Notes under the pieces: generated by a model
The model's input: the letters and a program-made list of their open reading frames with translations, nothing else
Database searches by the model: none
Told to the model about the DNA's origin: nothing
Sequence record: NZ_CP067423.1
DNA: 64,000 nt
Reading direction: 5' to 3' (one strand)
DNA from: a plasmid
Shown: piece by piece, positions 2,320 to 60,819 of the stretch
Numbering within the stretch: position 1 is the stretch's first letter
How the letters are laid out: each line of letters opens with the position of its first letter
Program-made: the position numbers and the translations under genes

Positions 2320-4644
2320 TCAAGCTTCCAGCCGCGCCACGGTTTCCAGATCTCGCTGACGCTGTCTGACCCGCCGCTCATAGCTCGCCTGGTTCTTGGT
2401 ACAAACAAGGGTGTAGGGGCGACCCGTGCGGTCGGTGGCGACATCCAGATCACAGCCCGCCTGACGAATCACTGCCTCGACATGTCCGCGCCGCGCCTCA
2501 GCCGCTTTCAGGGTCCACGTTTTTTGTGCGGGATCGTCGAGGAACTGGGCAAGGTCGCGGCAGTCGGGGCACGAACAGGGAAGCTGGCTGTTCCGCCGCC
2601 AGTCCTTCGGCGCCTCAAGCGGTTCAGCAATACGGGCACGCAGGTGGTCCAACGCGGCGGCGCGCAGTTGCTCCACAGCCGGCAGGCTCATGGGCGGCAG
2701 GCTTTTTGCGGATCTCGTGCCGACGAGATTCACGAGAGCGGGAATGAGCACACCGTCCTGATCGTATGACTTTGACCAAGCCAGCATGTGGTCGACCGCA
2801 CGCATCGCCAGTGACTCGTCGACCCCTCCCAGCGCGATCACGACATCGGCCACGAGGCCGGCCGACGGGGGCCGAGGCCGGTTCCACCAGGGATGTTGTG
2901 ACTCCATTTGGGTCGGATCGCCTGGAAGGGCTGCGAGCAGAGCCTCGGCCGCTCCCGCAAGGCTGGTACGGCCGCTGAGCGGCCAGGTCGCGGCGCGGGC
3001 CAGCAGTGCCGCGCACGCTTCCAGCGATGACGACGCCTTTGCGCGGATGATCCGCTCGATCAGCGTGGCGGCCTGTTCAGGCGCCAGAAGGCCAGCCGCC
3101 TCGACCATGGCGCCGGTGTCGCCCTTGGCAAACCCACCGTCTTCGGCTAGACGATCCAGGAATGCCGCGATGCTTTCCGTGTCAGCAAACCGCGTCAGCG
3201 CAGTCAGCAAACGAGTGGCAGGGCCGGGGGGGTCATCATGGCCGCCTTGCCGCTCCGCCCAGTTCCCAATGATGTGACCGGCCAGTTCGTGCCCCTGTTC
3301 CCACAGCGGAGACGATTGCACACCGTCAGCGTCCTCCCAGCGCCTTGTCAGATCTTCCAGATACGGCAGGGTAACCGACAGACCCGCCTGATTCAGAACC
3401 GCCAAGAAATGTGCGTTCGGCCACAGCACCAGCGCTGCCCGACGGTAGGTGCGCTCGAAGGATGCCCCTTCGTTGCCGGTGGCCTCGTGGAAATGCTCCT
3501 CGTCCGGCTCCAGCCCGTCGAAGGCATCGGGTGGCAACAACTCGTCATCGCCGAAGGGGATGTCCGCCAGCGAAGCGGTGCCCCCATTCGGCCGACGCCA
3601 TTCGGTGAGAACCGCACGGCGGTCGTTGACCTCCAGCGCCTCCAGTTCCGGCTCTGACCAGCGGGAGCGGTACGATCCGCCGTCTCCGGTGTATTCGGCG
3701 ATCCCGCTCTCCTTAATGGACACCAGCGCCAGATGCAGGGCGAAGTCAGCCCGCCGCGCAGCGGCGGCGAGCACCCCGGCCACTGCGGCATCGGCGCCCT
3801 TCAGCGCCCCGAATCCCAATTCGGCGGGAGTATAGGCATGTTCCAGCGGGTAGATGAGCTTCTCGGGCCTATCGTCCACTAGACTGTCTTCGTCCAGTAT
3901 GTCGTCCTCGAGTTCGCCGGCGGCCTCCGCCCAGTCCTTGAGAAGGATCGCCGTACGAGCGGTTTCACGGTTGTAGTCGGGTGGTTCGGGTAATGGTACC
4001 GGGCCTGGGCGCGTGAGATTGTAGACCAGCGTCAGTCGGTGACCTTGGGTAACTGGGGTCAACTCGTGGACGCAGTCGGCGTAGAAGGCGGCGTAGCGCA
4101 CCTCCGACGGCTCCTCCGAGCGCAGATCAAGCCGCACCTCCCGTCCCTTGTGGCGTACGATCAGTTCACCGCCGGTCGAAGCCGGGACCGAGGGCAGGAC
4201 GATCACCAGCGTGGCGAACATGCTCGGAGCCTTCTCGGTGTCGCGATGACGGACGAAGAAATCGCCTTCGGCATAGATCAGCAGCTTGTAAAGCTCCGCC
4301 TCGACCGGCCCGTCCACTCCCAGCCCCTCGGCCGCGCTTGAGACGATCCGCTCCAGCGTTCGCGGCCAATGCCTGCCGCCGATATGGACCCGCCCGGCAT
4401 CGATCTGCCAAGTCCGCCGCACCGCCGGGTCGACCAAGGTTTCCTCGCCGCGCCCATAGGGCGCACGCTCGGCCACGGCGATGAGCTGTTCAGCCTGGAC
4501 CGGCAGCAGCGGCAGGGCGATCGGACCGACGCCCACCACCTCCATCATGGGCGCCAGCAGCTCAGCTGTGCCCGAGGCGAAAAAGTCGCCGGGCCGGCGA
4601 ATGGTTCCCAGGACTGCGGCAAGCTCAAGGACAAGGGAGGACAT
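2320..4644 (-). CDS. 774-aa hypothetical protein: N-terminal prolyl-4-hydroxylase-like 2OG-Fe(II) oxygenase domain fused to a ~500-aa Ala/Leu-rich helical C-terminal region ending in a CSCPDC motif
   Basis: The ORF-track ORF 2320..4803 carries a GGAGG Shine-Dalgarno 7 nt before the internal ATG at 4644 (MSSLVLELAAV...), so I start it there. Motif ELYKLLIYAEGDFFVRHRD ... TLVIVLPS ... GGELIVRH matches the HxD...H iron triad and P4H-type fold (E.LQ..Y..G..F..H.D). The rest has no family I recognise. Confidence 0.6.
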   Translation of the reverse strand: MSSLVLELAAVLGTIRRPGDFFASGTAELLAPMMEVVGVGPIALPLLPVQAEQLIAVAERAPYGRGEETLVDPAVRRTWQIDAGRVHIGGRHWPRTLERIVSSAAEGLGVDGPVEAELYKLLIYAEGDFFVRHRDTEKAPSMFATLVIVLPSVPASTGGELIVRHKGREVRLDLRSEEPSEVRYAAFYADCVHELTPVTQGHRLTLVYNLTRPGPVPLPEPPDYNRETARTAILLKDWAEAAGELEDDILDEDSLVDDRPEKLIYPLEHAYTPAELGFGALKGADAAVAGVLAAAARRADFALHLALVSIKESGIAEYTGDGGSYRSRWSEPELEALEVNDRRAVLTEWRRPNGGTASLADIPFGDDELLPPDAFDGLEPDEEHFHEATGNEGASFERTYRRAALVLWPNAHFLAVLNQAGLSVTLPYLEDLTRRWEDADGVQSSPLWEQGHELAGHIIGNWAERQGGHDDPPGPATRLLTALTRFADTESIAAFLDRLAEDGGFAKGDTGAMVEAAGLLAPEQAATLIERIIRAKASSSLEACAALLARAATWPLSGRTSLAGAAEALLAALPGDPTQMESQHPWWNRPRPPSAGLVADVVIALGGVDESLAMRAVDHMLAWSKSYDQDGVLIPALVNLVGTRSAKSLPPMSLPAVEQLRAAALDHLRARIAEPLEAPKDWRRNSQLPCSCPDCRDLAQFLDDPAQKTWTLKAAEARRGHVEAVIRQAGCDLDVATDRTGRPYTLVCTKNQASYERRVRQRQRDLETVARLEA

Positions 4645-7758: not shown

Positions 7759-8502
7759 ATGTTGACACACCCGACCCTGGACCTGCTGCACGACCTCGGA
7801 CTGGAAGGCTGTGCCAGAGGCTTCAGGGAACTGGCGGCCAATCCCGCGGCGGCCACGCTGGATCATGCCGAATGGCTCGGCGTCCTGCTCGAGCACGAGG
7901 TGACGAGGCGCAATCAGAAGCTCTACGAGAACCGGGCCCGGCGCGCCCGGTTGCGTCATCAGGCGGTGATCGAGGATGTCGATTACCGGGCGGCGCGCGG
8001 CCTGGACAAGGCTCTGTTCCTGAAGCTGGGAGCCTGCGGATGGGTTCGCGAGCACCGCAACCTGATCCTCACCGGGCCCTGCGGAGTGGGCAAAACCTGG
8101 CTGGCCTGCGCGCTCGGCAACCAGGCCTGCCGGGAGAACCTGTCGGTGCTCTACGTGCGGGCCTCGCGGCTGTTCGCCGACCTGGCGCTGGGACGTGGTG
8201 ACGGTCGCTACACCCGGCTGCTGCGCAGCTATGGCAAGGCTGATCTGATGATCCTTGACGATTGGGGACCGGAGCCTTTGGGAGCGGACCAGCGCCGTGA
8301 CCTGCTGGAGATCGTCGAAGAGCGCTACGGCAGGAAGTCGTTGCTGATCACCAGTCAAGTTCCCGCGTCCAACTGGCACGCGATCATTGGAAATCCCACC
8401 CTGGGCGATGCGATCCTGGATCGCATCGTTCACAATGCCTACAGGATCGAACTGAGCGGGGATTCCCTGCGCAAACACAAAGCCGAAGTCGAGCAAAAGT
8501 GA
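7759..8502 (+). CDS. istB: IS21 family helper ATPase IstB
   Basis: Walker A GPCGVGKT, Walker B LMILDDWG, and the DnaA/IstB AAA+ fold. Confidence 0.9.
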   Translation: MLTHPTLDLLHDLGLEGCARGFRELAANPAAATLDHAEWLGVLLEHEVTRRNQKLYENRARRARLRHQAVIEDVDYRAARGLDKALFLKLGACGWVREHRNLILTGPCGVGKTWLACALGNQACRENLSVLYVRASRLFADLALGRGDGRYTRLLRSYGKADLMILDDWGPEPLGADQRRDLLEIVEERYGRKSLLITSQVPASNWHAIIGNPTLGDAILDRIVHNAYRIELSGDSLRKHKAEVEQK

Positions 8503-29452: not shown

Positions 29453-30325
29453 CTACAGCCCGCTTGCCTTGGTGAGATTGACTCGAAACCGATCGCGGCG
29501 CCGCTGATATCTACGGGTCATCTCGGCGGAGGCGTGGCCGAGCTGCTTTTGCACGTAGCGCTCGTCGACCTCGGCCGACGAGGCAAGCCCGGCGCGCAGC
29601 GAATGCCCCGCGAACTTTTGTTCTCGTTCGCCCTCGGAAAGATCGCCGCGTACGCCGGCCGCCAGCGCTGCCCGCTTGACCAGGCGTGCCACCTCCTGGT
29701 CGTTGAGCCGCTCGCTGCCCACCTTTTTGCCTTGCCCCGTCACCCTTCGGAACAGCGGCCCGTGGGCAATGCGCGCGAGCTTGAGCCAGGTCTCCAGCGC
29801 CACGACCGGGCAGGTCGTGTCGGACGAGCCCCGGCCGATCTCGACCTCCCGCCAGCCGGTCTTGCCGCGCAACGTGACGAGCAGGCCTTTTTCGAAGACC
29901 TCGATCCAGCCGCGGCCGTCCTCGGTTTGGTCGCGGCCGACGTCCAGGCCGACGATTTCGGAACGACGCAGCCCGCCGGCAAAGCCGAGAAGCAGCATGG
30001 CACGGTCGCGCAAGCCGCGCAGGGTACCCCGATCGAGGGTTTCCAGCATGGCCATGAGATTCTCGGGCAGGATGGCTTCCTTCTGTACTGGCGGTTTTGC
30101 GTGGCTGTTGCGAATGCCGGCCATGACGGTGGCGATGTGCCGGTCTTTCCTGTCCAGCGGCTGGCCACGCTGTGCATAGTTCCACGTCAGCGAGGAGAGG
30201 CGCCGCTCGATCGTGGATACGGAGTTCGGCTTCTTGTCGCCGGTCGCCTTTCCTGAGGCGCAGGCGGTGATGTAGAGGCCGACCAACTGCGGATCGGGCG
30301 GGAACACGTCCAGACCTTGGCGGCG
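29453..30325 (-). pseudogene. tyrosine integrase, C-terminal 291 codons (catalytic domain), separated from its N-terminal part by IS21 copy 2
   Basis: Catalytic-domain motifs (RDRAMLLLGFAGGLRRSEIVGL ... HSLRAGLASSAEVDERYVQKQLGHASAEMTRRY). The ORF-track ORF 29453..30403 extends into the IS21 terminal repeat. Confidence 0.8.
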
Positions 30326-30475
30326 TGCGTATTCCGGCGAAAGCGCCCTGGCGTTTCGGTTCAAACCGCCCACCGTTTCGGTGATTTCGCCCACCCGCCC
30401 CATGGGACGGGTGGGTGGGCGGCATCGTGATCCATCGTTTTCATCTTATGCTGGTATCGTCGCTCGTGCCAGGGG

Positions 30476-31237
30476 TCACGATGGCGTTGCAGATCTGGCT
30501 GTTTTCTGGTCTGCCGCCCGTACCCGGCGCATGGACTCGCCCGTGAGCTCGATGCGCAATGCCCGGTGAACGACGCGGTCGAGGATCGCGTCGGCGTAAG
30601 TGGCATCGCCGATCGACCGGTGCCAGTTCGCCACGGGGATCTGGGTTGCCAGCACCGTGGCGGCACGGTCATGCCGGTCGTCGATCACTTCCATCAGGTC
30701 GAGCCGCTGAGCCGCAGTGAGCTCGGTCATGGCCCAGTCGTCGATGATCAGCACCTCCAGGCGGGCCAGGCGGCGCAGGACGCGGGCGAGCGAGCCGTCG
30801 AGCCGGGCGGTCGCCAGATCGTCGAGCAGGCGCGTCAGCCGGGTGTAGAAGACGCCGTAGCCTTCCCGGGCCGCCTGGTTGCCCAGCGCACAGGCCAGGA
30901 ACGTCTTGCCGATGCCGGTCGGGCCGGTCACCAGCAGCGGCTGGTGCTCGCGAACCCAGCGACAACTCGCCAGATCGCGGATCAGCGTGCGATCGAGGCC
31001 GCGCGGCGTGCGCCAGTCGAGATCCTCCAGGCAGGCGGTCTGGCGCAGCCGGGCCCGCTTCAGCCGGCTGGCCAGGGCGGTGTTGGCGCGCTCCGCCGTC
31101 TCGCGCTCGACCAGCAGGGCAAGCTGGTCGTCGAAGCTGAGCTGGTTGCGCTCGGGCTGGCGCTCGAGGTCTTCCAGGCCGCGCGCCATGCCGTACAGCC
31201 GCAGCCGGCGCAGAGCCTCGTGGGTCGGATGCTTCAT
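30476..31237 (-). CDS. istB: IS21 family helper ATPase IstB
   Basis: Walker A GPTGIGKT and Walker B VLIIDDWA. Confidence 0.9.
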   Translation of the reverse strand: MKHPTHEALRRLRLYGMARGLEDLERQPERNQLSFDDQLALLVERETAERANTALASRLKRARLRQTACLEDLDWRTPRGLDRTLIRDLASCRWVREHQPLLVTGPTGIGKTFLACALGNQAAREGYGVFYTRLTRLLDDLATARLDGSLARVLRRLARLEVLIIDDWAMTELTAAQRLDLMEVIDDRHDRAATVLATQIPVANWHRSIGDATYADAILDRVVHRALRIELTGESMRRVRAADQKTARSATPS

Positions 31238-31255
31238 GCTCTCGGGTCTCCTTGT

Positions 31256-32791
31256 TCAGTTCCGGTAGTAAGAGGGGCCGCGCAGGTTGGCGTGCTCGCC
31301 CAAGCCGTCGGATGAGGCTGGCGGCGGACCGCCGCTGGTGAGCCAGCGCTGGACGTAGCGCCAGGATCGGACATTGGCTTCCAGGGCGGCCTGACAGGCT
31401 TGTTCCAGCCGGTCGGCGCCGTGGGCGCCGCCGAGCCGGAGCAGGCCGAGACCGGCACGCACCGCCTGCTCGCGATGTTCCGCCGCCGCCAGGATGCGCT
31501 CGAACAGCAGGGTCGCCGCCGAGCCGACCGCGGCGAACTCGGCCTGAAGGTGTTCCGGCGTGTAGCGGGCCACCGCGCGGTGGGAGGCCGGCTGGTGAGC
31601 TTCCAGCGTCGTCCGGCTGCCGGCCGAAGCCCGGGGATGGCAGGCGACGCGCCGCCCGCGCAGGAAGATGCTGATCAGGGCGGCGGTCGCGTGGACATCG
31701 ACCGTCTTGCCGATCGCGGTGTAGGGCACCGAGTAGGCGGCGCCGTCGATCACGACATGGTAATCGGGCGCCAGCTTGTAGCGGCTCCAGGTTCCCGGAA
31801 CGAAGCGGTCCGCCGGCAGCGGCCGCAGATGGGCACGCTCCCGCTCGGCCAGGATCCGCGCCCGGCAGCTGTCCTTGTCGCCGCTCAGCGGTGCTGCGTT
31901 CAGCATGGCCAGGTGCTCCCGGATCGCGGCGTTGGCGGCGTCGAGGCTGACGAAGACGGTGTCGCGGATCGGCGCCAGCACGCGCCGTTCGACCTGCAGC
32001 ACCGCATTCTCGACCGCTGCCTTGTCCCTCGGCTGACGCACCCGCGTCGGGACGACGGCGATCCGGTAGTGCTGGGCAAGGTCGTGGTAGCCGGGGTTGA
32101 GGGTGGGATCGTAGAACGAGGCGTGGCTGACGCCGACCTTGAGGTTGTCGGGCACCAGGCGGGCCGGAGCACCGCCCAGGTGCTCCAGCAGCCGGACGTG
32201 GGAGGCCAGCCAGTCCTCCGACCGCTGCGTCCAGGTCGCTTCGGCGTAGATGTAGCCGGAGTACGGCAGGCAGGCGACGAAGATCTGCGCCGGGCGGGCA
32301 TCGGCGCCGACCCCGATCATCAGGGTCATGCCGGCGTAATCGACTTCCAGCGCGTCGCCCGGCAGATGGTCGCGCCGCATCCGGGGAACTGCCCGGGCGG
32401 CCTGCCAGTCCCGGAAGCGCTGGACGAACTGGGTGTAGCGGTAGCCGTCGGGATGGCAAACCAGATACTCCTGCCAGAGCAGTTGGAGCGTCACGCCCCG
32501 CCGGCCCAGGTCCCGCTCCACCGCTGCCCAGTCCGGCAGGGGACGTGGCTGCGCCGGCGGTGGCGGGAACAGACGCCGCTCCAGCTCCTCGTCGCTCCAC
32601 TCCTTCACGTCGCCAAAGCGCAGGTCCGCGCTCTCGAGGCGGCGCAGGTAATCGCGCACCGTCGTGCGCGGCATCCGGCATGCCGCCGCGATCCGGCGCA
32701 CGCTCGCCCCGAACTCATCGCGCAGCCGCAAGACTTCCCTGATGCGTCGCATGTCCGATCTCCCTCGCGGCATCCCACCCTCCCTGCCCAT
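31256..32791 (-). CDS. istA: IS21 family transposase IstA
   Basis: HTH N-terminus (SVRRIAAACRMPRTTVRDYL) and DDE core. It lies 18 nt upstream of istB. The start may be the Met at ~32752. Confidence 0.9.
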   Translation of the reverse strand: MGREGGMPRGRSDMRRIREVLRLRDEFGASVRRIAAACRMPRTTVRDYLRRLESADLRFGDVKEWSDEELERRLFPPPPAQPRPLPDWAAVERDLGRRGVTLQLLWQEYLVCHPDGYRYTQFVQRFRDWQAARAVPRMRRDHLPGDALEVDYAGMTLMIGVGADARPAQIFVACLPYSGYIYAEATWTQRSEDWLASHVRLLEHLGGAPARLVPDNLKVGVSHASFYDPTLNPGYHDLAQHYRIAVVPTRVRQPRDKAAVENAVLQVERRVLAPIRDTVFVSLDAANAAIREHLAMLNAAPLSGDKDSCRARILAERERAHLRPLPADRFVPGTWSRYKLAPDYHVVIDGAAYSVPYTAIGKTVDVHATAALISIFLRGRRVACHPRASAGSRTTLEAHQPASHRAVARYTPEHLQAEFAAVGSAATLLFERILAAAEHREQAVRAGLGLLRLGGAHGADRLEQACQAALEANVRSWRYVQRWLTSGGPPPASSDGLGEHANLRGPSYYRN

Positions 32792-32950
32792 TGTCGCAAG
32801 GACCCCAGTGTAGATGCCGATACAGGATCAGACGCCGCCCATCTCTACTCCCACGTGTGGGCGAAATCGCCGAAACGGCAGGGCGGTTTGAACCGAAACA
32901 GGGGGGCGCTTTCCCCCGAAATCAGAGGGCGGATTCAGCCGAAATATGCA

Positions 32951-33370
32951 GCGGCGCGCCCAGGCGCAAAAATGCTTCCAGTCCGCAGCGTAGGCGCGGC
33001 GGGTGTTGGCCGAGCTCGCCGCCTCGACATAATCGCGCGCGCGATCGGCCAACGCGTCGAGATGCGCCGGCAGGCGCGGATTGGCGACGGCCGGAAGAGG
33101 GGAGGGGGCTTCGGCTGACAGTTCTTCCGGGGCGCGACCCATCTCCATGACGACATCGATGATGTCGGGCAAATCGTCCGCAGCTTTCGCCTCCAGCCCG
33201 GCCGACGACCGCAGACCTAAAGCATCGTCCTGCGCCCCCGTGCTGTGGGGCGGTGCGGAGGGTCGCGCGAGGCGATTTTCGGGCTTCTGCTCGACGATTC
33301 GGGCTGTCGCTCGCGTTTGGTCAACGGACGGCAAGTTACTGATCTGGCGCGAATCATCTTCGGAGTTCAT
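32951..33370 (-). pseudogene. tyrosine integrase, N-terminal 140 codons (Pro/Ala-rich extension plus SAM-like arm-binding domain); likely true start at an internal Met (~33148)
   Basis: ...LPAHLDALADRARDYVEAASSANTRRAYAADWKHFCAWARR is the N-terminal domain of phage-type integrases. Excising IS21 copy 2 and one GCGGCG copy joins it in frame to 29453-30325, giving ...KHFCAWARRQGLDVFPPDPQLVGLYI... Confidence 0.7.
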
Positions 33371-35094
33371 TGGCGGATTCTAGCCGAATCAGCGGATTTT
33401 TCGTAACATTCGAGCGGACGAACTTTACAGCGAGGGTGGCTGTGGTTCATGGGCCCGACAAGGAGACGGTTGATGATGCCGCCTGGAATGAGGCGGTTGC
33501 AAGGGAGGCCGTGATCCGCAGACTGGTCTCGCTCGACTGCCCCGGCCGGTCCGATTTCTTCCGGGCTTGCCGTGAACTCGGCCTCAAGCGAACCCGGCTT
33601 TACGAACTGATCAGGGCTTATCGGGAGCATCCGGTCACGAGTTCGCTGCTGCCGCGCCCGGGCGGCACGAGACAGGGCAGCCGCCGGTTGCCGGATGAGA
33701 CCGAAGCGGTAATCGCCGAAGCGCTCCGGGACTTTTACAAGACACGCCAGAAGCCGAGCATCAATCGACTGCACAAGGAGATCCGCGGGCTCTGCCGCTC
33801 GCGTGGCGTGCGCGTACCGTCCTGGCATGCGCTGAAGGCGCGGATCGAGGTCATAGACCCCGCCGAACTGACCAAGGCACGGGAAGGCTCGAAGGCAGCG
33901 CGTGATCGCTTCCACCCAGTTCCGGGAGAATATGCCGCCGAGTGCGCGTTCAACGTAGTCCAGATCGACCACACGCTGGTCGATGTCATTGTCGTCGATC
34001 GCCGATGTCGGCGGCCCCTGCAGCGGCCGTTGCTGACGCTCGCCATCGACATCGCAAGCCGCATGGTCGCGGGCTTCTACCTGACGCTCGAGGCGCCGTC
34101 GACGGTTTCGGTCGCACTCGTAATCCAGCATGTCGTGCAGCCGAAAGAGGTGTGGCTTGCCGGACTGGGCATCGATGCGAAGTGGCCGGCCTGCGGGTTC
34201 CCTGATGCCATCCACCTCGATAACGCCAAGGAATTCCGGTCGCGCGCCCTGCAGCGGGGCGCTGAGGAATATGGCATCGAGCTCATCCATCGTCCGATCG
34301 CCACTCCCCACTATGGCGGCCATATCGAGCGGCTGATCGGCACCATGATGGGCGCCGTCCATCTTCTGCCGGGCACGACGTTCAGCGACATCGACGAGCG
34401 TGGCAGCTATGATTCCGCCGCCCATGCGACGATGACTCTGGATGAACTGGAGCGGTGGATGGCGCTCGAAATCACGCGCTACCACGCCGATCGCCATGGA
34501 ACGCTGGGGATTCCGCCGCTTGCGGCATGGCACGAGGCTGCGGCCCGCCGCGTTCGGCCTGTGCGTCAGCCCCACGATCTCGCCGGCTTCACGATCGATT
34601 TCCTGCCCAGCGCCGACCGGCTGGTGCGGCGTGACGGCATTCACCTGTTCGGTCTCCGCTACTGGGATGACGTGCTGAGCATATGGGCCGGTCGGCTCGA
34701 TCGTGCGTTGCGCGTTTCCTACGATCCACGCGATCTTTCGAGGGTTTTCGTGCGCGCTCCGGATGGTACGCGCTGGCCGATCCGCTTTGCCGATCTGCGG
34801 CGCGCGCCGATCACACTTGGCGAACATCGCCGCGCTCGGACCGCCCTGCGGGAACGCGGTCTTTCGCTGGTCGACGAGCAGCTGATCTTCGAGACCATTG
34901 AGTCCCAGCGCGCACTAGTCGAGGACGCGACCAGGCGCACCAAGGCAGCGCGTCAGCTGGCGGAGAGGCGCGACCGAGCGCTGGAGGCTGCCGCGTCAAA
35001 CGCGCTGGTTGCGGCCGAGCCGGCGCAAATCGAGGATGAGCGGCCGATCGACTGGAGCAAGGTCCCCGTCTTTCCCGTCGAGGAATGGTCGTGA
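33370..35094 (+). CDS. tniA: TniA / TnsB-like DDE transposase (Mu/Tn7 retroviral-integrase superfamily); true start probably the GTG at ~33436
   Basis: Collinear with Tn5053/Tn402 TniA: DDE core (VVQIDHTLVDVIVVD ... LTLAIDIASRMVAGFYLTLEAPS ... IHLDNAKEFRS ... PHYGGHIERLIG) and C-terminal ...FPVEEW like the TniA ...FDQIEEW. The predicted 5' 60 nt overlap candidate terminal repeats. Confidence 0.85.
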   Translation: MADSSRISGFFVTFERTNFTARVAVVHGPDKETVDDAAWNEAVAREAVIRRLVSLDCPGRSDFFRACRELGLKRTRLYELIRAYREHPVTSSLLPRPGGTRQGSRRLPDETEAVIAEALRDFYKTRQKPSINRLHKEIRGLCRSRGVRVPSWHALKARIEVIDPAELTKAREGSKAARDRFHPVPGEYAAECAFNVVQIDHTLVDVIVVDRRCRRPLQRPLLTLAIDIASRMVAGFYLTLEAPSTVSVALVIQHVVQPKEVWLAGLGIDAKWPACGFPDAIHLDNAKEFRSRALQRGAEEYGIELIHRPIATPHYGGHIERLIGTMMGAVHLLPGTTFSDIDERGSYDSAAHATMTLDELERWMALEITRYHADRHGTLGIPPLAAWHEAAARRVRPVRQPHDLAGFTIDFLPSADRLVRRDGIHLFGLRYWDDVLSIWAGRLDRALRVSYDPRDLSRVFVRAPDGTRWPIRFADLRRAPITLGEHRRARTALRERGLSLVDEQLIFETIESQRALVEDATRRTKAARQLAERRDRALEAAASNALVAAEPAQIEDERPIDWSKVPVFPVEEWS

Positions 35095-36014
35095 GAGGGG
35101 AGGGGACTTTCGAGCACCTCGACGACCGCTACCGCCGCTATGCCGCTTTGCCCGACGAAGAGCGCATTGCCTGGATCAAGGCCGACCGCTGGATCGGCTT
35201 CGACCAGGCGCAAGCCGCACTTGTCCGCCTGAACGCGTTGCTTGCCTATCCCCCACGTGACCGTATGCCCTGCCTGCTGATCTATGGCGACACCGGCATG
35301 GGCAAGACCAAGATCGTCCGCAAATTCGAGCGGGCGCATCCGCCCACATTGTGTCAGTCGACGGGCGTGACCAACAGGCCGGTCGTCGTGGCCCAAGTAC
35401 CCTCGGAGCCGGTCGAGCGCGACCTCTATCGGGAACTGCTGGCCAGCCTGCAGGCTCCAGCGCTCGTCGGCGGCGCGCTTGCCCGGGAGAAAGACATCTG
35501 CCGCTCGCTGCTGCGCACCGTCGGCGCCAGAATGATCGTGCTCGACGAGGTCAACGGCATGCTGGCGGGGACCTATCGGCAGCAACGGATTTTCCTGAAT
35601 GCGCTGCGGTTTCTCGCAAACGACCTCAGAGTGCCGCTTGTCTGCGCCGGTACCGACCTGGCGCGCCAGGCCTTGCTCACCGACGCGCAGCTTGCCGAGC
35701 GCTTCGAGGCGTTTCATCTCAAGCTCTGGAAGAACGATCACGCCTTTGCGCGGCTCTTGAAAAGCCTCGCTGGCATCCTGCCGCTGCGCGCTCCGTCCGA
35801 TCTCGAAACGGACGCGGTTCGTGAAAGGATCCACACGCTCACCAGCGGCGTCACGTTCAGGATTTTCCAGCTGATCGAGACGGCAGCCGAGGAGGCGATC
35901 CGGTCGGGGAAGGAACGGCTCGACCTGATGAGCTTCGGCGATGATCTTGTCCTTCCGCTTGTGTCGATGACGCAATCGGCACGCCGGCGGATGCCGCAGC
36001 CGGCGGCCGGGTGA
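35085..36014 (+). CDS. tniB: TniB / TnsC-like AAA+ ATPase
   Basis: Walker A GDTGMGKT, Walker B MIVLDEVN. Collinear with Tn5053 TniB. It overlaps the tniA stop. Confidence 0.85.
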   Translation: MVVRGEGTFEHLDDRYRRYAALPDEERIAWIKADRWIGFDQAQAALVRLNALLAYPPRDRMPCLLIYGDTGMGKTKIVRKFERAHPPTLCQSTGVTNRPVVVAQVPSEPVERDLYRELLASLQAPALVGGALAREKDICRSLLRTVGARMIVLDEVNGMLAGTYRQQRIFLNALRFLANDLRVPLVCAGTDLARQALLTDAQLAERFEAFHLKLWKNDHAFARLLKSLAGILPLRAPSDLETDAVRERIHTLTSGVTFRIFQLIETAAEEAIRSGKERLDLMSFGDDLVLPLVSMTQSARRRMPQPAAG

Positions 36015-37185
36015 TGGAGCCGGATCGTCTGCCCGTGGCGCCGCGGCCCTTTCGCGACGAATTGCTGTCCTCCTGGATGGCGCGGGTGGCATGCCGCTAC
36101 GGCCTTACGGCGCAGCAACTAGCCGGCTATTTCAGTGGCCTGTCGTCACCCCTGCCGATAGACGACGGGGCTCCGGCGGCCGGGCAGACGAGGGTTTGGG
36201 CACAGATCTGCAGTGTCGACCCCGATCGGTTGCATCGCCTGTCCCTGAGCTGGCGCTACCCGCGACGCGCTCGAGCCTGGTACGTAAGCAGGGGACCGGA
36301 ATGGACGCCGTCGGCGATGTCCGGGTCTATCCCAGTCTGTCTCGCTTGCTTCGCTGCCGATCGCGCTGCGGGCCACGACGCGCATCTTCGAGCCGGCTGG
36401 ATGCTCGCCGAACGCTGTATCTGCCCAACTCATGGCGAGTTGCTGCACGATCACTGCGTATCGTGCCACTGGCGTCTTTCCGTGGCTTTCCACCTGCACG
36501 ACGGAAGCGCGCGGCCTGTCTGCAGCCATTGCGCGCGGCTTCTCACCGATAGGGGAGGGAGGGCGGTCAGCCACAGGATCCCGCCCTCCTGGCGACGGCG
36601 CTGGCCACCCAGCAGCGGATCACGGCAAGCGTCAACGGTGAAAATCCCGAGGGCGACAGGCTCGAGAAGGCGCTCTCAGTGCTCTGGGCGCCGCTCGACC
36701 ATCCGGCAGCAGCGCGGCCGGTGCTGGCGCTGTGGTTCAACGAAGCCGGCTGGCGCTGTCCCTATGAAGCCAGGCATGCCGTCGGCGCCAAAACTCCGCT
36801 CGGCCAGTTGCCGGTGCGCTGGCGCTTCCTGACGCTGCTGGCTCTGGACGACGTTTTCGGTACCGATCCGCGCGTGGACGGTGCAATGCCGCCTGTCGCC
36901 GCTCATCTCGCCCGGCGGGCCGCGCCACGACCGATCCGCCTCTCAAGGCCAAGCCGACGGCCGCACGTCCAGCTGCTGAAGCGCTCGGCGGCCGAGTACG
37001 AGCGCCTGGCACGTCAAATTCTGGCTGATCCGAACTGGACCGCAGCGGAAGAGCTGCCCCCGCGAAAGCGAGAGCGTGTCCGGGCTCGGCTGATCGATGC
37101 TGCGCTTGCCGGGAATCCGGCGTCACCCGGGGCATGGTTGTCGCCCAAACTATCGAGCGACGAGCAGGCGATTCAGAAATGCTGA
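36011..37185 (+). pseudogene. tniQ: TniQ-family target-selection protein, frameshifted (about 391 codons over two frames; shift near 36560-36600)
   Basis: N-terminal TniQ domain PRPFRDELLSSWMARVACRYGLTAQQLAGYF and a zinc-finger-like cluster CLACF...CPTHGELLHDHCVSCHW...CSHC. Frame 1 then degenerates into Arg-rich nonsense while the -1 frame continues with plausible sequence (LWAPLDHPAAARPVLALWFNEAGWRCPY...) to 37185. Confidence 0.65.
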
Positions 37186-37453
37186 GACTGCGTGCTGCGG
37201 GGCGTAGTCTCACGAATTTCGATTCATCCGGCCGTACAAGGATGCACGAGATTTCGTCCGCAAGCCCGATTGACGTCGATATCGGCATTCTGCTCGACGA
37301 GAGAGGCTGCCCGCTGCCGCTGTCCGGGGATTAAGCGCAAACCCGGTCCGCTCAATGAACGCGAATTCTCGTCGATCTGACGCCTAAAGGAGACTGTCCG
37401 CCGGTGAAAAGCGAGCCACAAGGCCATTTTTTAAGGGGTCTCACAAAACGAGC

Positions 37454-37517
37454 GATAATGCAAGATTATCATTCATTATTGTTTGCCGACAGGCAGGGCG
37501 CTTTAGGCATATTATCG
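37454..37517 (+). promoter_or_regulatory. AT-rich putative promoter/operator upstream of the DUF1403 gene; the palindrome GATAAT-GCAAG-ATTATC at 37454-37470 resembles a Fur/Mur-type box
   Basis: Read directly: CGATAATGCAAGATTATCATTCATTATTGTTTGCC...GGCATATTATCG in an otherwise GC-rich context. The hexamers GATAAT/ATTATC are the Fur-box building blocks. A TATTAT -10-like element follows ~40 nt downstream. Confidence 0.3.
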
Positions 37518-37554
37518 TTGTCAAAAGCGCCGCCGTGATTCATCCTGCTTTTCG

Positions 37555-38595
37555 ATGATTCTGCGGCCCAAACTCCTCTCGCGCCACCCCGGCAAGCTTC
37601 TTGACGCGGTGGCCGTCGCTCCGTGGGCCCTGGTCCCGGCCTGGCTGCGCCGGGCAATCCCGGATGCGCAAAGCGTTGCGGGAAAGGAAGTTGAGGAGGT
37701 CGCGCTTGCTGCCGGTGCTGCTATCGGCGCCCTCGATGCGGTAGTCCGCCGGCAGGAACGGTGGGCCGGGGTCTGGCGGCAGCGCCTGGCGCTTGTCGCG
37801 GCCGCGGTGACGGCACGACAGGCCGGCCGCGTCGAGGATTCTTTGGCATTGCGCGACGCCGTGCTGCTGACACGCCCCGGCGATTTTTTGTCCGTTGGCC
37901 CGGCCGGGCTTTTGCTGCTCGCCTGGCGCCGGTTGGTCGACACGCCTGCCGAGAAACTGCTGACCGAGCGGAGCATCGGCGCGGTGTTGGAAGAACTCGG
38001 CTACGCCCCGGATGAAGAGGTGGTCAGCGCTCTGGTGGGGGAACTCGGTCAGATCGGCGGCGGGGCAGAGACGGTCGGGATGCTGACCGGTGCTTTTGTG
38101 GCCGCCGAACGCTATGGTTTTGGGCCGGCTTTCGGCGCCTGGCTCGCCGACGGTCTGCTGGCGCAGCGGCTGGCGTGGCCGCATGCAATACCGCTGCTGG
38201 GCACCGAAGCTGCTTTTTTTGGCATGCGTGCCGGGCATTCACGTCGGGCGGCGACCGGTATGGCGGCAGCGGGCCCTGAGACAGAGCCGGAGCGTGCCAA
38301 AAAACTGCTGGCGGCACAGGCGCGGGCGGCGCTGCGCGCCATCGATCTTTTTGCTGAGCTCGGCCGCCGTGCCGAAAAACTGCTGGCCGTCGCGCCGAAA
38401 CTCAGGGCCAAGGGAGCGGACGCGATCGTCGACCGGTTGTTGAACGAAGACGCGCTCATGGCCTCGCGCGGGGACAAAAAAATGGACAAAAAGATGAGTG
38501 ACCGGGGGCTACGCCGCCTGTTCGACCGGCTTCTTGTCCTGGGTGCCGTGCGTGAGCTGTCCGGTCGCCCGACCTTCCGCACCTACGGACTGTGA
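37555..38595 (+). CDS. DUF1403 family protein (346 aa)
   Basis: Alpha-helical, Ala/Leu-rich protein of the family that, in alphaproteobacterial replicons, is typically encoded immediately upstream of a ScpB-like gene, as here. Its stop overlaps the next start (GTGA). Confidence 0.65.
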   Translation: MILRPKLLSRHPGKLLDAVAVAPWALVPAWLRRAIPDAQSVAGKEVEEVALAAGAAIGALDAVVRRQERWAGVWRQRLALVAAAVTARQAGRVEDSLALRDAVLLTRPGDFLSVGPAGLLLLAWRRLVDTPAEKLLTERSIGAVLEELGYAPDEEVVSALVGELGQIGGGAETVGMLTGAFVAAERYGFGPAFGAWLADGLLAQRLAWPHAIPLLGTEAAFFGMRAGHSRRAATGMAAAGPETEPERAKKLLAAQARAALRAIDLFAELGRRAEKLLAVAPKLRAKGADAIVDRLLNEDALMASRGDKKMDKKMSDRGLRRLFDRLLVLGAVRELSGRPTFRTYGL

Positions 38596-39320
38596 CGATG
38601 GCGGCTCGTTCGACCAAAACTCGGCGAGACAATGGGGATGGGCAACGACCGTTGCTTGACCGGGAGCTGGATCACCTGCCGCCGGAGGCGCGCTGGCGCG
38701 AATGGATGCAGCGCGTTGAGGCAACCATTTTTGCCGCCAGCGAGCCGGTGACACGTAGTGTCCTCGCGCGGGTGGTTGGCGCGGATTGCAACCTCGATCT
38801 CTTGATCGACGACATTCGCGAGGAGCTGCGCGGGCGGCCTTACGACCTGGTCGCCGTCGCCGGCGGCTGGAAACATTTGACCCGGCCGACCTATGCCGAC
38901 GCCATCCGCGCCGCTATGGGCGGCAGTGAGAAGGCGATGGATCTCACGCAATCCGAGGTGCTGGTGCTGATGTGCGTGGCGTATTTCCAGCCGATCACCC
39001 GCGCCGAGTTGTCGTCTTTCTTCGGCAAGGAGATCAGTCGTGATTTTATTGGTCATCTGCGCGGCGCGAAGCTGATTGCGTCCGGCCCGCGCAGCCCGAC
39101 GCCCGGCGCGCCCTACACCTACGTGACGACCAAAGAATTCCTGTTGGAGTTCGGCCTCGACACGCTGCGCGACCTGCCGGATTTCGAGGCGCTCGAAGAC
39201 GCCGGGTTGCTGTCGAAGGAGAAGCTGCTGGCAGGGGATATTCCGATGGGGATTGCGGGCGGTGAAGATGATGGCGAGGACGAGCAGCCGAGCGTCGGTC
39301 TCGTCGACGACGCGATGTGA
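38592..39320 (+). CDS. scpB: ScpB-like protein (SMC-Scp complex subunit B family, tandem winged-helix)
   Basis: ScpB signature region VEATIFAASEPVTRSVLARVVG...DLLIDDIREELRGRPYDLVAVAGGWKHLTRP, a second winged-helix (QSEVLVLMCVAYFQPITRAELSSFFGK), and an acidic C-terminal tail. Confidence 0.75.
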   Translation: MTMAARSTKTRRDNGDGQRPLLDRELDHLPPEARWREWMQRVEATIFAASEPVTRSVLARVVGADCNLDLLIDDIREELRGRPYDLVAVAGGWKHLTRPTYADAIRAAMGGSEKAMDLTQSEVLVLMCVAYFQPITRAELSSFFGKEISRDFIGHLRGAKLIASGPRSPTPGAPYTYVTTKEFLLEFGLDTLRDLPDFEALEDAGLLSKEKLLAGDIPMGIAGGEDDGEDEQPSVGLVDDAM

Positions 39321-57154: not shown

Positions 57155-58178
57155 TGCATTTGTGTAGTCAGTCGGACTCTTCTTGCTTCACCTCAATGCG
57201 CTGGGAAGACCATGCTGAGGCGGTCGAACTTCGGTCTTAGGGGTGCTCGCAGCTCTCATCTTTGCTACCATGAAAGCTAATAACGGCTAATCACATGAAC
57301 AGCCCCTCTAACCGCGTGTGGATAATAGTCAACGATGGATTCGAAGGCGTTGCGATAAGCTATTTGGACGTCTCAGCTGCTGGCAACTTCCAGCAGCCTT
57401 CAACTCATCCATTTTCACTCGTGAGAACAATTCGTCGATTTATCAGCAATTTATGTCGATCAGCATTCACGAGGACATATTAGCACATGCCTCTGTCGAG
57501 CCACGCATTTCCTAATCGAAGTGCTCTGAGTCAACCGCAGCACTCTGAATAGCCACAGGATCTCGGAGGCTCCATGTGCGGATGTATATGGACCCCGCCC
57601 AATTGCAACAGTCGGCTGGATCAGGATCGATGGTCACAACTGCTGATGTATATCCGGCTGCGTGATGCGGCTGGACAACGTCTTCGCCGCGAGCCTCGAT
57701 GGGTTGATGGGTTTTCGCCGCTTCCACCTCAAAGCCCCGATGACATTGGTTAACGCCATGCCGGTCCACACATCAGGTTCTGGAAGCGACGGGGTGACCG
57801 TTTCGCCATCTCCTGCCATTGGCTGCAATTGGCGGGGTGGGACCTCCTTTAGTTATTGGCCGCTTCTATTCAGGCCGCCTTCACCGACAGCGCGGCCCCT
57901 TTGCGGAAGTCGACCGGCGTGCTCGCAACATAAACCGTCACGCCCGAAGGGATGCTTGAGTACGTTCAGCTGGCGTATCTGGTCTGGTCGGTGCAGGTGC
58001 GCCAGCGGACGCAGCTGATCGACGCTTTGCGCGTGTAAGTGCCGGGTGAATACTCCTCAGATCGGGCGGATGAACTTTCCCCAGGCTGACGCAACGGCAC
58101 GGCTCCGGAGCAGGCGCCTCGGAACCGTGTAGCCGCCCTTGGCCCATAATCCCCTCAGTCGATTGAGGGAGGGCGTGG

Positions 58179-59453
58179 GTGGTCACACTTGGGGAACTCG
58201 TCATGATTCTCGATCTCGCCCGCCAGGGGCTGAGCGTGTCGGCAATCGCGCGCCGGACCGGCCTGGACCGCAAGACCATCCGAAAGTACATCGCCAAGGG
58301 GCTGGAGCCGCCCGCCTACACGCCGCGGCCCCCGCGACAGACCCTTGTCGGCCCCTTTGAACCCTATCTGCGGGAGCGCCTCCAGGCCTTCCCGGAACTC
58401 AGCGGCCGACGTCTGCTCCGGGACATCCGCGCGCTCGGCTACCAGGGCGGCTATACCGTGCTGAAGGATTTCCTGCGTACCGTCCGGCCCAGGCCCGAGA
58501 CACAGTTCGAGCGCCGGTTCGAGACACCGCCCGGCAAGCAGGCCCAGGTCGATTTCGCCTTCTTCAAGACCGTGTTCACCGACCAGCCCGACGTCGAGCG
58601 GATCGTCTGGCTGTTCTCGATCGTGCTCGGCCACAGCCGCATGATGTGGGCCCGCTTCGTCGCCCGCCAGGATCTGCCGACCGTGCTCCGGTGCCACATC
58701 GCCGCCTTCGAGGCGTTCGGCGGCGTGCCCGAGCAGATCCTTTATGACCGCATGAAGACCGCCGTGCTCGGTGACGTCGAGGACCCCGACCAGCCGGCCA
58801 AGGGGATCGCCTACAATGCCAAGCTCCTCGATCTGGCCGCCTGCTACGGTTTCCTGCCGAAGGCCTGCAGGCCCTACCGGGCACAGACCAAGGGCAAGGT
58901 GGAGCGGCCCTTCCGCTATGTCCGGGAGGACTTCTTCCTCGCCCGCACCTTCCGCAATCTGGACGACCTGAACGCCCAGTTCGTCCAGTGGCTGGACCAG
59001 GTCGCCAACGTTCGCCTGCACGCCACCACCCAGCGTGTCGTCGTCGAGCATTTCGCCGAGGAGCGCGATCACCTCAAGGCCCTCCCGGCCGGTCCCTTCA
59101 ACACCGTGCTGGCACTCGAGCGCCGCATCACCCGCGACGGCATGGTCTCCGTCGCCGGCAATCTCTACTCCGTGCCCGACAGCACCCGCCGGCGGACCGT
59201 CGAGGTGCAGATTACCGCCGGCGCGGTCAACATCCTGGAGGACGGCATCCTCATCGCCTCCCATCCGGCACAGGAAGGCCGCGGCCAGCGCCGGATCGCT
59301 CCCGGTCACCGCACCCAGCCGCCGCCGGCCAACAGCAGGACGGCCCGGGAGGAGGCCAGGCCCGAGCCTCGGGGCAGCACGGTGACACCCCGTTCGCTGG
59401 CCATCTACGACGCGATCGGCCGCCGTCTCGCCAGCCAGCAGGGTGTCCCATGA
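58179..59453 (+). CDS. istA: IS21 family transposase IstA
   Basis: HTH (LSVSAIARRTGLDRKTIRKYI) and DDE core (QVDFAFFKT...). Confidence 0.9.
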   Translation: MVTLGELVMILDLARQGLSVSAIARRTGLDRKTIRKYIAKGLEPPAYTPRPPRQTLVGPFEPYLRERLQAFPELSGRRLLRDIRALGYQGGYTVLKDFLRTVRPRPETQFERRFETPPGKQAQVDFAFFKTVFTDQPDVERIVWLFSIVLGHSRMMWARFVARQDLPTVLRCHIAAFEAFGGVPEQILYDRMKTAVLGDVEDPDQPAKGIAYNAKLLDLAACYGFLPKACRPYRAQTKGKVERPFRYVREDFFLARTFRNLDDLNAQFVQWLDQVANVRLHATTQRVVVEHFAEERDHLKALPAGPFNTVLALERRITRDGMVSVAGNLYSVPDSTRRRTVEVQITAGAVNILEDGILIASHPAQEGRGQRRIAPGHRTQPPPANSRTAREEARPEPRGSTVTPRSLAIYDAIGRRLASQQGVP

Positions 59454-60328
59454 CCGCAACCACCCTCGATCCGGCGGCCAGCCCCGCCACGCTCGACCGC
59501 ATCCGCGCTCACCTGGTCGGTCTCAACATGCCGCGCGCGCTCGAAGTGCTGGAGCATATCCTGCGGCGGATCGAACGCGGCGAGATCTCGGCCCTGGAGG
59601 CCATCGACACCCTGCTCGGCGAGGAACTGACCCTGCGGGAGGGGCGACGCGTCAGGTCCGCGCTGAAGATGGGCCGGCTGATCAACATCAAGACCCTGGG
59701 CGGGTTCGACTTCTCCTTCCAGCCCTCGCTTGACCGCGACCGCATCATGGCGCTGGCCCAGCTCGACTTCGTCGATCGCCACGAGGCGGTCCATTTCCTC
59801 GGTCAACCCGGCTGCGGCAAAACCCATCTGGCGCTGGCCCTCGGTGTCGAGGCGGTCAAGTCCGGTCGTTCGGTCTACTTCGCCACCCTGGCCGACATCG
59901 TCAGTTCGCTCGCCAAGGCGGAGCGGGAAGGCACCCTGCGCGAACGCCTGCGTTTTCTGTGCCGGCCCCAGTTGCTGATCGTCGATGAGATCGGCTATCT
60001 GCCCGTCATCCCGGGGGGCGGCAACCTATTCTTCCAGCTGGTAAATGCCCGTTACGAACGCGGCGCGATGATCCTGACCTCGAACCGCGGCTTTGCCGAA
60101 TGGGGCGATGTCTTCGGCGGCACCGTCGTCGCCACCGCGCTGCTGGACCGCCTGCTACACCATGCCGTTGTCGTTCAGATCGAGGGAGCCAGCTACCGGC
60201 TCCGCCGCCACGCCGACCTGATCCCGGACAACACTCGAACCCGATCCATCACTACCCCTCAACCTCAACCACGCCGCCGGGGACGACCACCGAAAATGAC
60301 CTCTACCCAGCCAGACACCGACCTATAA
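59450..60328 (+). CDS. istB: IS21 family helper ATPase IstB
   Basis: Walker A GQPGCGKTHLA and Walker B LLIVDEIG. The start overlaps the istA stop. Confidence 0.9.
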   Translation: MTATTLDPAASPATLDRIRAHLVGLNMPRALEVLEHILRRIERGEISALEAIDTLLGEELTLREGRRVRSALKMGRLINIKTLGGFDFSFQPSLDRDRIMALAQLDFVDRHEAVHFLGQPGCGKTHLALALGVEAVKSGRSVYFATLADIVSSLAKAEREGTLRERLRFLCRPQLLIVDEIGYLPVIPGGGNLFFQLVNARYERGAMILTSNRGFAEWGDVFGGTVVATALLDRLLHHAVVVQIEGASYRLRRHADLIPDNTRTRSITTPQPQPRRRGRPPKMTSTQPDTDL

Positions 60329-60819
60329 CCTGACAAACCGACTGGGGATTATTCACCCGCCCGATCTGGGGAAGCTTCATCCGCCCTTTACAGCGCGGGC
60401 ATCTTGCCGAACGCGGCATCATCGCACCACAAGGTCCGGCTCACCTGAAAACCTTAGCTGCCGCGATTGATGCCGCCGAACCAGCGATGCCCCAACTGGT
60501 CCTCGACCTTGGTCGCGTACCTCGAGCAGGTCGACCGGTTGAGCCGCGAAGATTGGAGAGCTGGAGAAATCCTTCGCCGTGAAGCCCCACGCGGGGAGGA
60601 TACACCCACCTTCGGACCACGCCGGGAATTGGCCCGATCACGGCCATGGCGGTGGAAGCGTGTGCGCCCCCAATGGCGACCTTAAGCGAGGTCGCGACTA
60701 TAGCGGTGGCGCAGTTCGGAGCGTGATCTGCTCCGAGAGCCATTGACTGAGAAAACTGGATATGCCAAATTGGTCAAACCAGATCGCGATGTTTTCCCAA
60801 ACGATGCGCACCTGGATGG

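Follow-up and report, generated by a model that had tools for sequence, protein, structure and literature searches.

Minimal tniABQ transposons that probably target tyrosine-recombinase att sites on alphaproteobacterial plasmids

The 64,000-nucleotide stretch of plasmid record NZ_CP067423.1 analysed here, referred to below as the window, carries a tniA-tniB-tniQ transposon between a tyrosine recombinase gene and a gene pair encoding a DUF1403 protein and an ScpB-like protein. We read this transposon as a member of a family of minimal, cargo-free elements of the Tn5053/Tn402 lineage that lack a resolvase of their own and target the attachment (att) sites of tyrosine recombinases, and assign this reading a rough probability of 0.78. 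Judging from the comparison of loci, the family is site- and orientation-specific, with alphaproteobacterial, mostly repABC, plasmids as its targets, and the recombinase and DUF1403-ScpB genes are, by the same comparison, a backbone module of the target plasmid rather than part of the element.

Gene identities were assigned by Pfam profile search, with NCBIfam used for the serine recombinase and its equivalog cutoffs applied to the Xer-like and ScpB scores, and the boundaries of the element were set by aligning the regions 5′ of tniA and 3′ of tniQ from loci whose neighbouring genes differ. The homology shared by loci that have unrelated flanks extends from TGTCG(C/T)TCGCGTTT, located 137 nucleotides (nt) upstream of tniA, to ...GCGAGC(G/C)ACA. 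In the window this gives the following features, with lengths in base pairs (bp):

33305 to 37420, plus strand: transposon of 4,116 bp containing tniA, tniB and tniQ only, delimited by the homology limits among loci with different flanks
33305 to 33441, plus strand: end next to tniA, in which four CGGA(C/T) repeats lie in register (33325, 33374, 33393 and 33415)
33442 to 35094, plus strand: tniA, DDE transposase of the Mu/TnsB type (Pfam; 42% identity over 508 amino acids to Tn402 TniA)
35085 to 36014, plus strand: tniB, AAA+ regulator (PF05621, E 1.5e-67; 41.5% identity to Tn402 TniB)
36014 to 37185, plus strand: tniQ pseudogene, target selector (PF06527), with a frameshift near 36553-36559
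37186 to 37420, plus strand: tniQ-proximal end, with five CGGA(C/T) repeats (37400, 37350, 37326, 37260 and 37230), inverted relative to those of the left end
33300 to 33304, no strand: CGGGC, the 5-bp target duplication as found on the left, degenerate by comparison with that on the right
37421 to 37427, no strand: right copy of the duplication, AGGCC (37421-37425), overlapping the original start codon of the recombinase gene (complement of 37425-37427)

The two ends form imperfect terminal inverted repeats of the TGT...ACA type (TGTCGCTCGCGTTT... at the left and ...AAAAGCGAGCCACA at the right), the pair as compared being TGTCGCTCGCGTTT and TGTGGCTCGCTTTT, and the CGGA(C/T) repeats at both ends have the layout that would be expected of TniA/TnsB binding sites. 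Elements of the family are 3.76–4.2 kilobases (kb) long. Degenerate in the window, the duplication matches at 4/5 positions in the sister copies L002 and L003 and is perfect in at least eight relatives (L005b, L011, L012, L020, L025, L026, L035 and L006, the last having TACCA, read directly from the alignments); about one third to one half of copies have mismatched duplication flanks. The first-pass annotation of the window, made from the letters alone, had suggested defining the element against empty sites, and had set against its own proposal the prospect of a tniR or res module associated with Tn5053 ends. Ends of the Tn5053 type were found, and between 33305 and 37420 they enclose tniABQ only, with the recombinase and DUF1403-ScpB lying outside.

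The same annotation had called a tniA-tniB-tniQ module and a DUF1403/ScpB-like pair, and Pfam confirms all of these genes. The open reading frame (ORF) at 33370-35094 carries the TniA domains Mu-transpos_C, rve and HTH_Tnp_Mu_2, and the start codon of tniA is most likely the GTG at 33442, as judged by the conserved N-terminus and the Shine-Dalgarno-like GAGGGTGG (the GenBank annotation places the start at 33511). The PF06527 domain of TniQ lies in the ORF at 36011-36832. With R751 as the Tn402 reference (TniA, TniB, TniQ and the terminal repeat IRt), BLASTP detects no similarity of TniQ, which is frameshifted in the window copy, to that of Tn402; taken together with the approximately 42% identity of TniA and TniB to their Tn402 counterparts, this fits a Tn5053-lineage machine with a changed target. 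There is no further ORF between the element ends for a TnsA endonuclease, and neither tniR nor res is found inside 33305-37420. The earlier statement that TnsA and a resolvase are missing thus stands for the inside of the element and has to be amended for its surroundings, where a backbone serine recombinase gene is located 6 kb upstream (26211-27206).

On its tniA side the element adjoins the tyrosine recombinase gene, which lies in two pieces:

29453 to 30325, minus strand: IntA-like tyrosine recombinase gene, C-terminal portion with the catalytic domain (Pfam; collinear with the intact pMDW3 gene)
30326 to 32950, minus strand: IS21-family element that splits the recombinase gene (istA 31256-32791, istB 30476-31237; 6-bp target duplication)
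32951 to 33304, minus strand: recombinase ORF, N-terminal part from codon 3 onward up to the transposon junction (collinear with pMDW3)

The catalytic domain is matched by Pfam Phage_integrase (E 3e-16) over window positions 29453-30403 on the minus strand, and the domains of the recombinase are PF00589 (E 6e-16) and the N-terminal SAM-like PF02899, while its Xer-like NCBIfam matches fall far below the equivalog cutoffs. The description of this gene as a divergent tyrosine recombinase bisected by an IS21 proved right, the split being at 30326-32950 and the gene intact in pMDW3. The 6-bp duplication of the IS21 (L001 19804-19809) is present on both sides in the window, and since pMDW3 lacks the IS21 and has an unbroken recombinase gene, the IS21 is a later insertion.

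When the two flanks of the transposon are joined they read ATG-GCC-CGA-ATC-GTC-GAG-CAG-AAG, a sequence homologous to the first codons of the pMET3 recombinase gene, whose site is unoccupied; at the protein level the flank A-R-I-V-E-Q-K-P resembles M-A-Q-N-V-E-Q-K-P of the pMET3 gene. Because the joined flanks restore the start of the recombinase gene, the element lies behind codon 2 of that gene. Insertion after codon 2 is seen where the recombinase gene lies immediately next to the site, the window included, and cuts off the original start codon. The annotated N-terminus of the window recombinase (33305-33370) is read from the transposon end, with an in-frame ATG at the complement of 33368-33370, and at most occupied sites, in three sub-lineages, the recombinase ORF is open into the transposon end and finds an in-frame ATG there. 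As far as the sequences can indicate, a start codon in the transposon end may reflect selection for continued expression of the recombinase. In the window and in the corresponding left ends of L010-L056 this ATG is found at +65, +9 or +16 nt, according to sub-lineage, and in the Rhodobacterales lineage the CAT of the in-frame start codon also belongs to the terminal repeat.

A genome-wide search with TniQ as the seed yielded 79 loci. In nearly all loci whose TniQ is 41% identical or more, the order is recombinase (minus strand), tniA, tniB and tniQ (plus strand), DUF1403 and ScpB (plus strand). These loci belong to Hyphomicrobiales and Rhodobacterales and usually lie beside repC: on Chelativorans, Mesorhizobium, Nitrobacter, Xanthobacter and Rhizobium plasmids, repABC and sometimes toxin-antitoxin genes are followed by recombinase-tniABQ-DUF1403-ScpB. 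The linkage of tniABQ to a tyrosine recombinase and DUF1403/ScpB, which the first-pass annotation had left to be looked for elsewhere, is therefore near-universal at this level of TniQ identity. The majority state of the module is the unoccupied one, with the layout recombinase (minus strand), optional toxin-antitoxin genes, palindrome, DUF1403 and ScpB and no tni genes; examples are pMET3 of Aminobacter, Mesorhizobium INR15, the octopine Ti plasmid pTi15955 and Ketogulonicigenium p3. Counted in PLSDB, DUF1403 is present on 611 plasmids and the TniQ family of the window on 72 (about 12% of the DUF1403 plasmids).

These distributions bear on the idea that the tyrosine recombinase belongs to the transposon and serves it, in place of TniR, as cointegrate resolvase, the transposing unit being recombinase plus tniABQ, possibly with DUF1403-ScpB as cargo. 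The recombinase does adjoin tniA in almost every locus, and tnsA-less Tn7-like clades, the Tn5053 clade among them, often carry serine or tyrosine resolvases (PMC8649781). Against this, the terminal repeats and 5-bp duplications exclude the recombinase, its start codon and first two codons are on the far side of the element, and recombinase-palindrome-DUF1403-ScpB without tni genes is the commoner arrangement. Moreover, toxin-antitoxin genes intervene between the recombinase and the element in L006 and L004, and tandem insertions, as in L005 and L039, share one recombinase; in Xanthobacter two tni modules lie in tandem. These data contradict a transposon-owned resolvase, which we consider very improbable.

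On the tniQ side, the element faces an att-like palindrome and the second half of the backbone module:

37447 to 37477, plus strand: att-like palindrome, with arms AGCGATAA (37451-37458) and TTATCATT (37466-37473) around the centre TGCAAGA (37459-37465)
37486 to 37515, plus strand: promoter-like site for DUF1403-ScpB (CCGACA, 18-nt spacer, TATTAT), from a consensus scan only
37555 to 38595, plus strand: DUF1403 gene, plasmid backbone (Pfam, E 2e-61; predicted Fic/FIDO fold with a C-terminal winged helix)
38592 to 39320, plus strand: ScpB-like winged-helix gene, plasmid backbone (PF04079, E 1.8e-31)

The core of the palindrome, CGATAA-(T/G)GCAA(NN)-TTAT(C/T)G, is found at unoccupied and occupied sites alike, with outer arms that vary by clade, and at all related loci it is located about 100 nt upstream of DUF1403. 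The orientation of the element is such that its tniQ-side end points toward the palindrome and its tniA-side end toward the recombinase gene. We pooled the target sites into a census comprising 57 occupied sites, taking flank statistics only where enough flank was present. The tniQ-side end is exactly 32 nt before CGATAA at 42 of the 57 (39 different 24-nt flanks), and in the window, CGATAA starts at 37453, 32 nt past the transposon end. L006 adjoins vapB and not the recombinase (compare L007), yet has the same 32-nt spacing, which argues that the palindrome, and not the recombinase ORF, sets the distance. The first-pass annotation had spoken of an element homing next to, or co-opting, a tyrosine recombinase; the unoccupied modules and the fixed 32 nt bear out the homing, while co-option is something we only infer.

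A scan of metagenome contigs for the palindrome alone, which is unbiased as to genes, was examined by hand over 80 stretches and found mostly a recombinase at the left and DUF1403-ScpB at the right, with approximately 8 of approximately 55 true sites occupied. In the pooled census the recombinase is present at 48 of the 50 unoccupied sites with enough left flank, and DUF1403 at 83 of the 92 sites with enough right flank. The same gap between recombinase and att-like site also houses a second tni lineage (TniA approximately 46–52% identical; L047, L057, L098, L104, L106, L117, L154 and L210), sometimes in tandem with the first; its end, ...ATCCGACA in L047 and L057, lies 47–48 nt from CGATAA.

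The identity of the palindrome is suggested by the IntA system of Rhizobium etli, and IntA of plasmid p42a served as our reference recombinase. IntA was shown experimentally to recombine the 23-bp attA, TCCGATAAGCATTACTTATCGGA, that is TCCGATAA-GCATTAC-TTATCGGA, and the published account describes attA as two palindrome arms with a divergent centre and reports its use for chromosomal integration (PMC4928290). On p42a the att site is 108 bp upstream of intA, the same relative position as in the module of the window. Sites of Rhizobium, Agrobacterium and Rhodobacterales read (G)TCCGATAA-TGCAA(A/G)(C/A)-TTAT(C/T)GGA(C), their 8-bp arms being identical to those of attA and their 7-bp centre equal to its centre in length, and the arms of the Aminobacter/Mesorhizobium lineage are (A)ACGATAA. 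Based on these similarities of site and position, we read the palindrome as the putative att site of the IntA-like recombinase.

How such an element might move can be modelled on the Tn5053 family, whose members transpose replicatively, need the resolvase of the target, insert at res in one orientation and resolve via their own res-TniR (PMC7765201). In the window family, TniQ would read the att site, whether as bare DNA or with the recombinase bound, by analogy with the presumed reading of occupied res sites by the TniQ of Tn5053. Given that TnsA is missing, transposition would be replicative, and since there is an att site 32 nt beyond the end of each copy, the cointegrate would carry two directly repeated att sites, one behind each copy of the element. 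Recombination between these sites by the plasmid recombinase, or host homologous recombination, would then separate donor and target, leaving one copy in each, and att-based resolution would make a transposon-borne resolvase unnecessary. It would also be expected to exchange the 32-nt flanks and to produce mismatched duplications. The fullest version of this scheme, in which TniQ uses the att-bound IntA-like recombinase as its marker, the same recombinase and att site resolve the cointegrate and the transposon end supplies the start codon, is put forward tentatively, at a little less than even odds.

Several observations weigh against the att-site reading or against the proposed resolution. 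The arms of the window palindrome are a variant, unlike attA and unlike each other; the window-lineage recombinase is only 31% identical to p42a IntA (E 2e-11) and p42a has its att site without DUF1403-ScpB, the palindrome being assigned by similarity and position. Offsets other than 32 nt (±1, 47–48 or 56 nt) are found at approximately 15 of the 57 occupied sites. Mismatched duplications are explained equally well by recombination between copies, and we therefore rejected them as proof of resolution at att, although the pattern fits; the perfect duplications show that there are also events of another kind, either resolved within the element or simple insertions. The polarity differs as well: in Tn5053 it is the tniA-distal end (IRo) that is nearest the resolvase gene (PMC7765201), whereas in the window family it is the tniA-proximal end. 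Finally, the palindrome is at a constant distance from the start of DUF1403, beside a conserved promoter-like motif, and on at least one plasmid (L089) no recombinase lies within 4 kb of the palindrome and DUF1403-ScpB, so that a site bound by DUF1403/ScpB, or bare DNA, could be the signal.

These last two observations are shared by an explanation in which insertion is site-specific and the recombinase is uninvolved, TniQ recognising an operator bound by DUF1403/ScpB, the promoter architecture or bare intergenic DNA. The conserved motif in question is CGACAGG...AAAGCGCC, winged-helix domains are present in both DUF1403 and the ScpB-like protein, and the TnsD of prototypic Tn7 reads DNA sequence directly, all of which would suit a signal of this kind. 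However, in its arms, in the length of its spacer and in its place close to the gene the palindrome agrees with the proven IntA att site, and p42a manages without DUF1403-ScpB. The palindrome occurs with a recombinase and no DUF1403 at the right in L105, and DUF1403 is also missing at the right of the palindromes in L129 and L130. In a distant Sphingomonadales clade (L063-L075, TniQ approximately 33% identical) the tniA end adjoins tyrosine recombinase genes with no DUF1403-ScpB, and the transposon-end start codon holds the recombinase ORF open, which suggests selection to keep the recombinase. On balance, we regard recognition that bypasses the recombinase and its site as unlikely. The Sphingomonad elements occur beside the recombinase in at least two contexts and are 4,052 bp long (for example, L070 7258-11309) with a clear left end; an att-like palindrome and a clean right terminus were sought in this clade and not found.

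The arrangement could also be a chance or local juxtaposition created by insertion sequence (IS) activity, or a domesticated, immobile tniABQ fixed in the backbone. The window is indeed rich in IS elements (two IS21-like elements and IS66, IS4/5 and ISL3 transposases), and many copies are frameshifted, including tniQ of the window, tniA of L002, and tniB and tniQ of L003. Yet the same geometry recurs at 57 occupied sites in many genera, presence is patchy among the DUF1403 plasmids, and perfect duplications with unrelated flanks, tandem copies and a solo end on pMLa point to repeated transposition; the comparative data contradict this explanation, which we consider very improbable. The solo end is a right-end remnant, gcgagcgaca, on pMLa of Mesorhizobium japonicum MAFF303099 (L008, ~7990-8020), 31 nt from CGATAA at a site that is otherwise apparently unoccupied and has an intergenic gap enlarged to 780 bp, and it testifies to an earlier insertion that has since been lost by deletion.

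The copy in the window is itself a decayed fossil and the system is dead here, as its tniQ is frameshifted, its duplication is degenerate and its recombinase is split by the IS21. In tblastn, the intact TniQ of L002 splits into two frames near 36553-36559. The interval is ~100% identical in plasmids of three Aminobacter strains, which are independent assemblies, and no intact tniQ is annotated there in any of them. The frameshift, from which the first-pass annotation had concluded that the copy may be decaying, is therefore unlikely to be an error of one assembly.

Among the known systems close to the family is Tn5053/Tn402, with which it shares the tniA-tniB-tniQ order inward from one end, the lack of TnsA, TGT-type terminal repeats of ~25 bp (Tn402 IRt is TGTCATTTTCAG...), repeats near the ends, 5-bp duplications and a preference for plasmid-borne recombination sites in one orientation (PMC7765201). 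In contrast to Tn5053/Tn402, it has no tniR, res or cargo, its TniQ is unrelated at the BLASTP level, and it inserts 32 nt outside the core of a tyrosine-recombinase att site, whereas Tn5053 inserts inside a serine-resolvase res site. The Tn402 terminal repeat was also sought in the Delftia loci L080 and L081 and is not present there.

The IntA/attA-attD system of R. etli p42a and p42d resembles the target module in having its site immediately upstream of the recombinase gene, in residing on alphaproteobacterial plasmids and in having the arms TCCGATAA/TTATCGGA around a 7-bp asymmetric centre (PMC4928290), the arms being the same in the Rhizobium, Agrobacterium and Rhodobacterales modules. The module differs in its centre (TGCAA(N)(N) versus GCA(T/G)TAC), in its recombinase, only distantly similar to IntA, and in its pairing with DUF1403-ScpB. 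A TniQ machine linked to a tyrosine-recombinase-type DNA-binding protein for target choice is known from Tn6022, whose TnsF is an inactivated tyrosine-recombinase-like selector accompanied by a short TniQ, and for which an ancestral DNA-bending recombinase acting in trans has been proposed (Faure et al. 2023, PMC10293859). Unlike TnsF, the window recombinase is encoded by the target replicon, retains its catalytic domain and is neither fused to nor carried by the transposon. The transposons described in PMC11406308, which likewise lack TnsA and a dedicated resolvase, consequently form cointegrates. In contrast to these, the window element has no CRISPR/Cas, and its invariable neighbour is a recombination site of the host plasmid, which could serve for resolution.

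Tn7, guided by TnsD to attTn7, inserts a few tens of bp to one side of the recognised sequence, in one orientation, and leaves the site intact. Measured against this well-established geometry, the window family likewise inserts at a fixed distance and in one orientation and preserves the recognised site. It differs from Tn7 in lacking TnsA and TnsE, in using a plasmid recombination site instead of a conserved chromosomal gene, and in that its transposase-distal end faces the recognised site.

In the literature on DUF1403, on tni genes combined with repABC or rhizobia, and on Tn7-like elements combined with plasmid tyrosine recombinases, we found no description of tniABQ at an IntA-type att site, nor any paper in which DUF1403 is mentioned. 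To our knowledge, only serine-resolvase res sites are known as targets of recombination-site sensing of the Tn5053 type. The family would thus extend the res-hunter strategy to a tyrosine-recombinase att site, with a spacing precise to the base pair, and if the interpretation is true it would provide a case from nature in which a recombinase partners TniQ in trans. Should the recombinase act as the marker, the 'in trans' arrangement modelled in PMC10293859 would have a present-day representative in this family. Surveys that score tyrosine recombinases near tnsA-less Tn7-like elements as the elements' own resolvases may sometimes have counted a gene of the target. The recombinase-att-DUF1403-ScpB module is found on Ti, Ri, symbiosis and roseobacter plasmids, and as the IntA att system is already an engineering tool, an att-directed transposition machine could be developed alongside it.

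The region to the right of the element had been described as giving DUF1403-ScpB its own AT-rich promoter. A promoter-like motif is indeed present, immediately to the right of the att-like site and with CGACAGG conserved across loci, and the description has to be amended in that the stretch also holds the conserved att-like palindrome. In L092 (Pseudosulfitobacter plasmid P4, ~3650-3700) the palindrome upstream of DUF1403 is reduced to its right half (TTATCAGACAT) and no recombinase is nearby, the pattern expected from recombination at the centre of the site joining unrelated DNA.

Concerning the proteins of the backbone pair, an AlphaFold2 model of DUF1403, built from an alignment of three clades (pLDDT 83), is clearly Fic-like. 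Pfam detects no Fic domain in DUF1403, sequence searches against the PDB returned nothing, and the conserved columns of alignments A3 and A4 contain neither the invariant His nor the GNGR of the catalytic motif HxFx(D/E)GNGRxxR. The predicted structure therefore suggests that DUF1403 is probably a Fic-fold protein lacking the canonical catalytic motif. The ScpB-like protein scores 65.8 bits against the 89.2-bit NCBIfam equivalog cutoff for ScpB, and its neighbour is Fic-like, not an ScpA kleisin; a role of DUF1403 as a ScpA-like kleisin partner was considered and rejected on account of the predicted fold.

Upstream of the tyrosine recombinase lies the one serine recombinase gene mentioned above:

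26211 to 27206, minus strand: serine recombinase gene, plasmid backbone, not a tniR (NCBIfam serine-recombinase matches; 6 kb upstream)

The same gene adjoins the unoccupied site of pMET3. Homology to pMDW3 begins at 26360, inside this gene, the 3′ end of which is replaced in the window by an IS-rich region: positions 1-26359 have no pMDW3 match and contain an amidase gene besides transposase ORFs of the IS66, IS4/5 and ISL3 types. Three tandem tyrosine recombinases considered for the upstream region were rejected, as Pfam identifies the genes as an LLM oxidoreductase, a RES/MbcA toxin-antitoxin pair and the serine recombinase. A second IS21-like insertion relative to pMDW3 occupies 58034-60392, with an istA-like ORF at 58179-59453, and 5 bp (L001 44882-44886) are common to both flanking alignment blocks.

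Some further observations concern copies of the element. A stretch of 28 nt at 33279-33306, in the 5′ region of the recombinase gene immediately outside the left end, is 79% identical to 37282-37309 within the right end of the transposon, and the latter stretch is conserved among sister copies. In L014 and L015 (Mesorhizobium, chromosome-sized contigs of 7.9 Mb) the element has no recombinase at its left, while its right flank retains the recombinase start codon (ATGGCCAT or ACGGCCAT), so that the left and right flanks derive from different sites. Other tniABQ elements, in L002 (1-6500, Chelativorans plasmid) and in Aminobacter SR38 (NZ_CP062114, 51078-59458), lie between a backbone serine recombinase gene and an MbcA/RES toxin-antitoxin pair. 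One of them has a serine recombinase gene right after tniQ, and they look like classical res-site hunters residing a few kb from the att-site elements.

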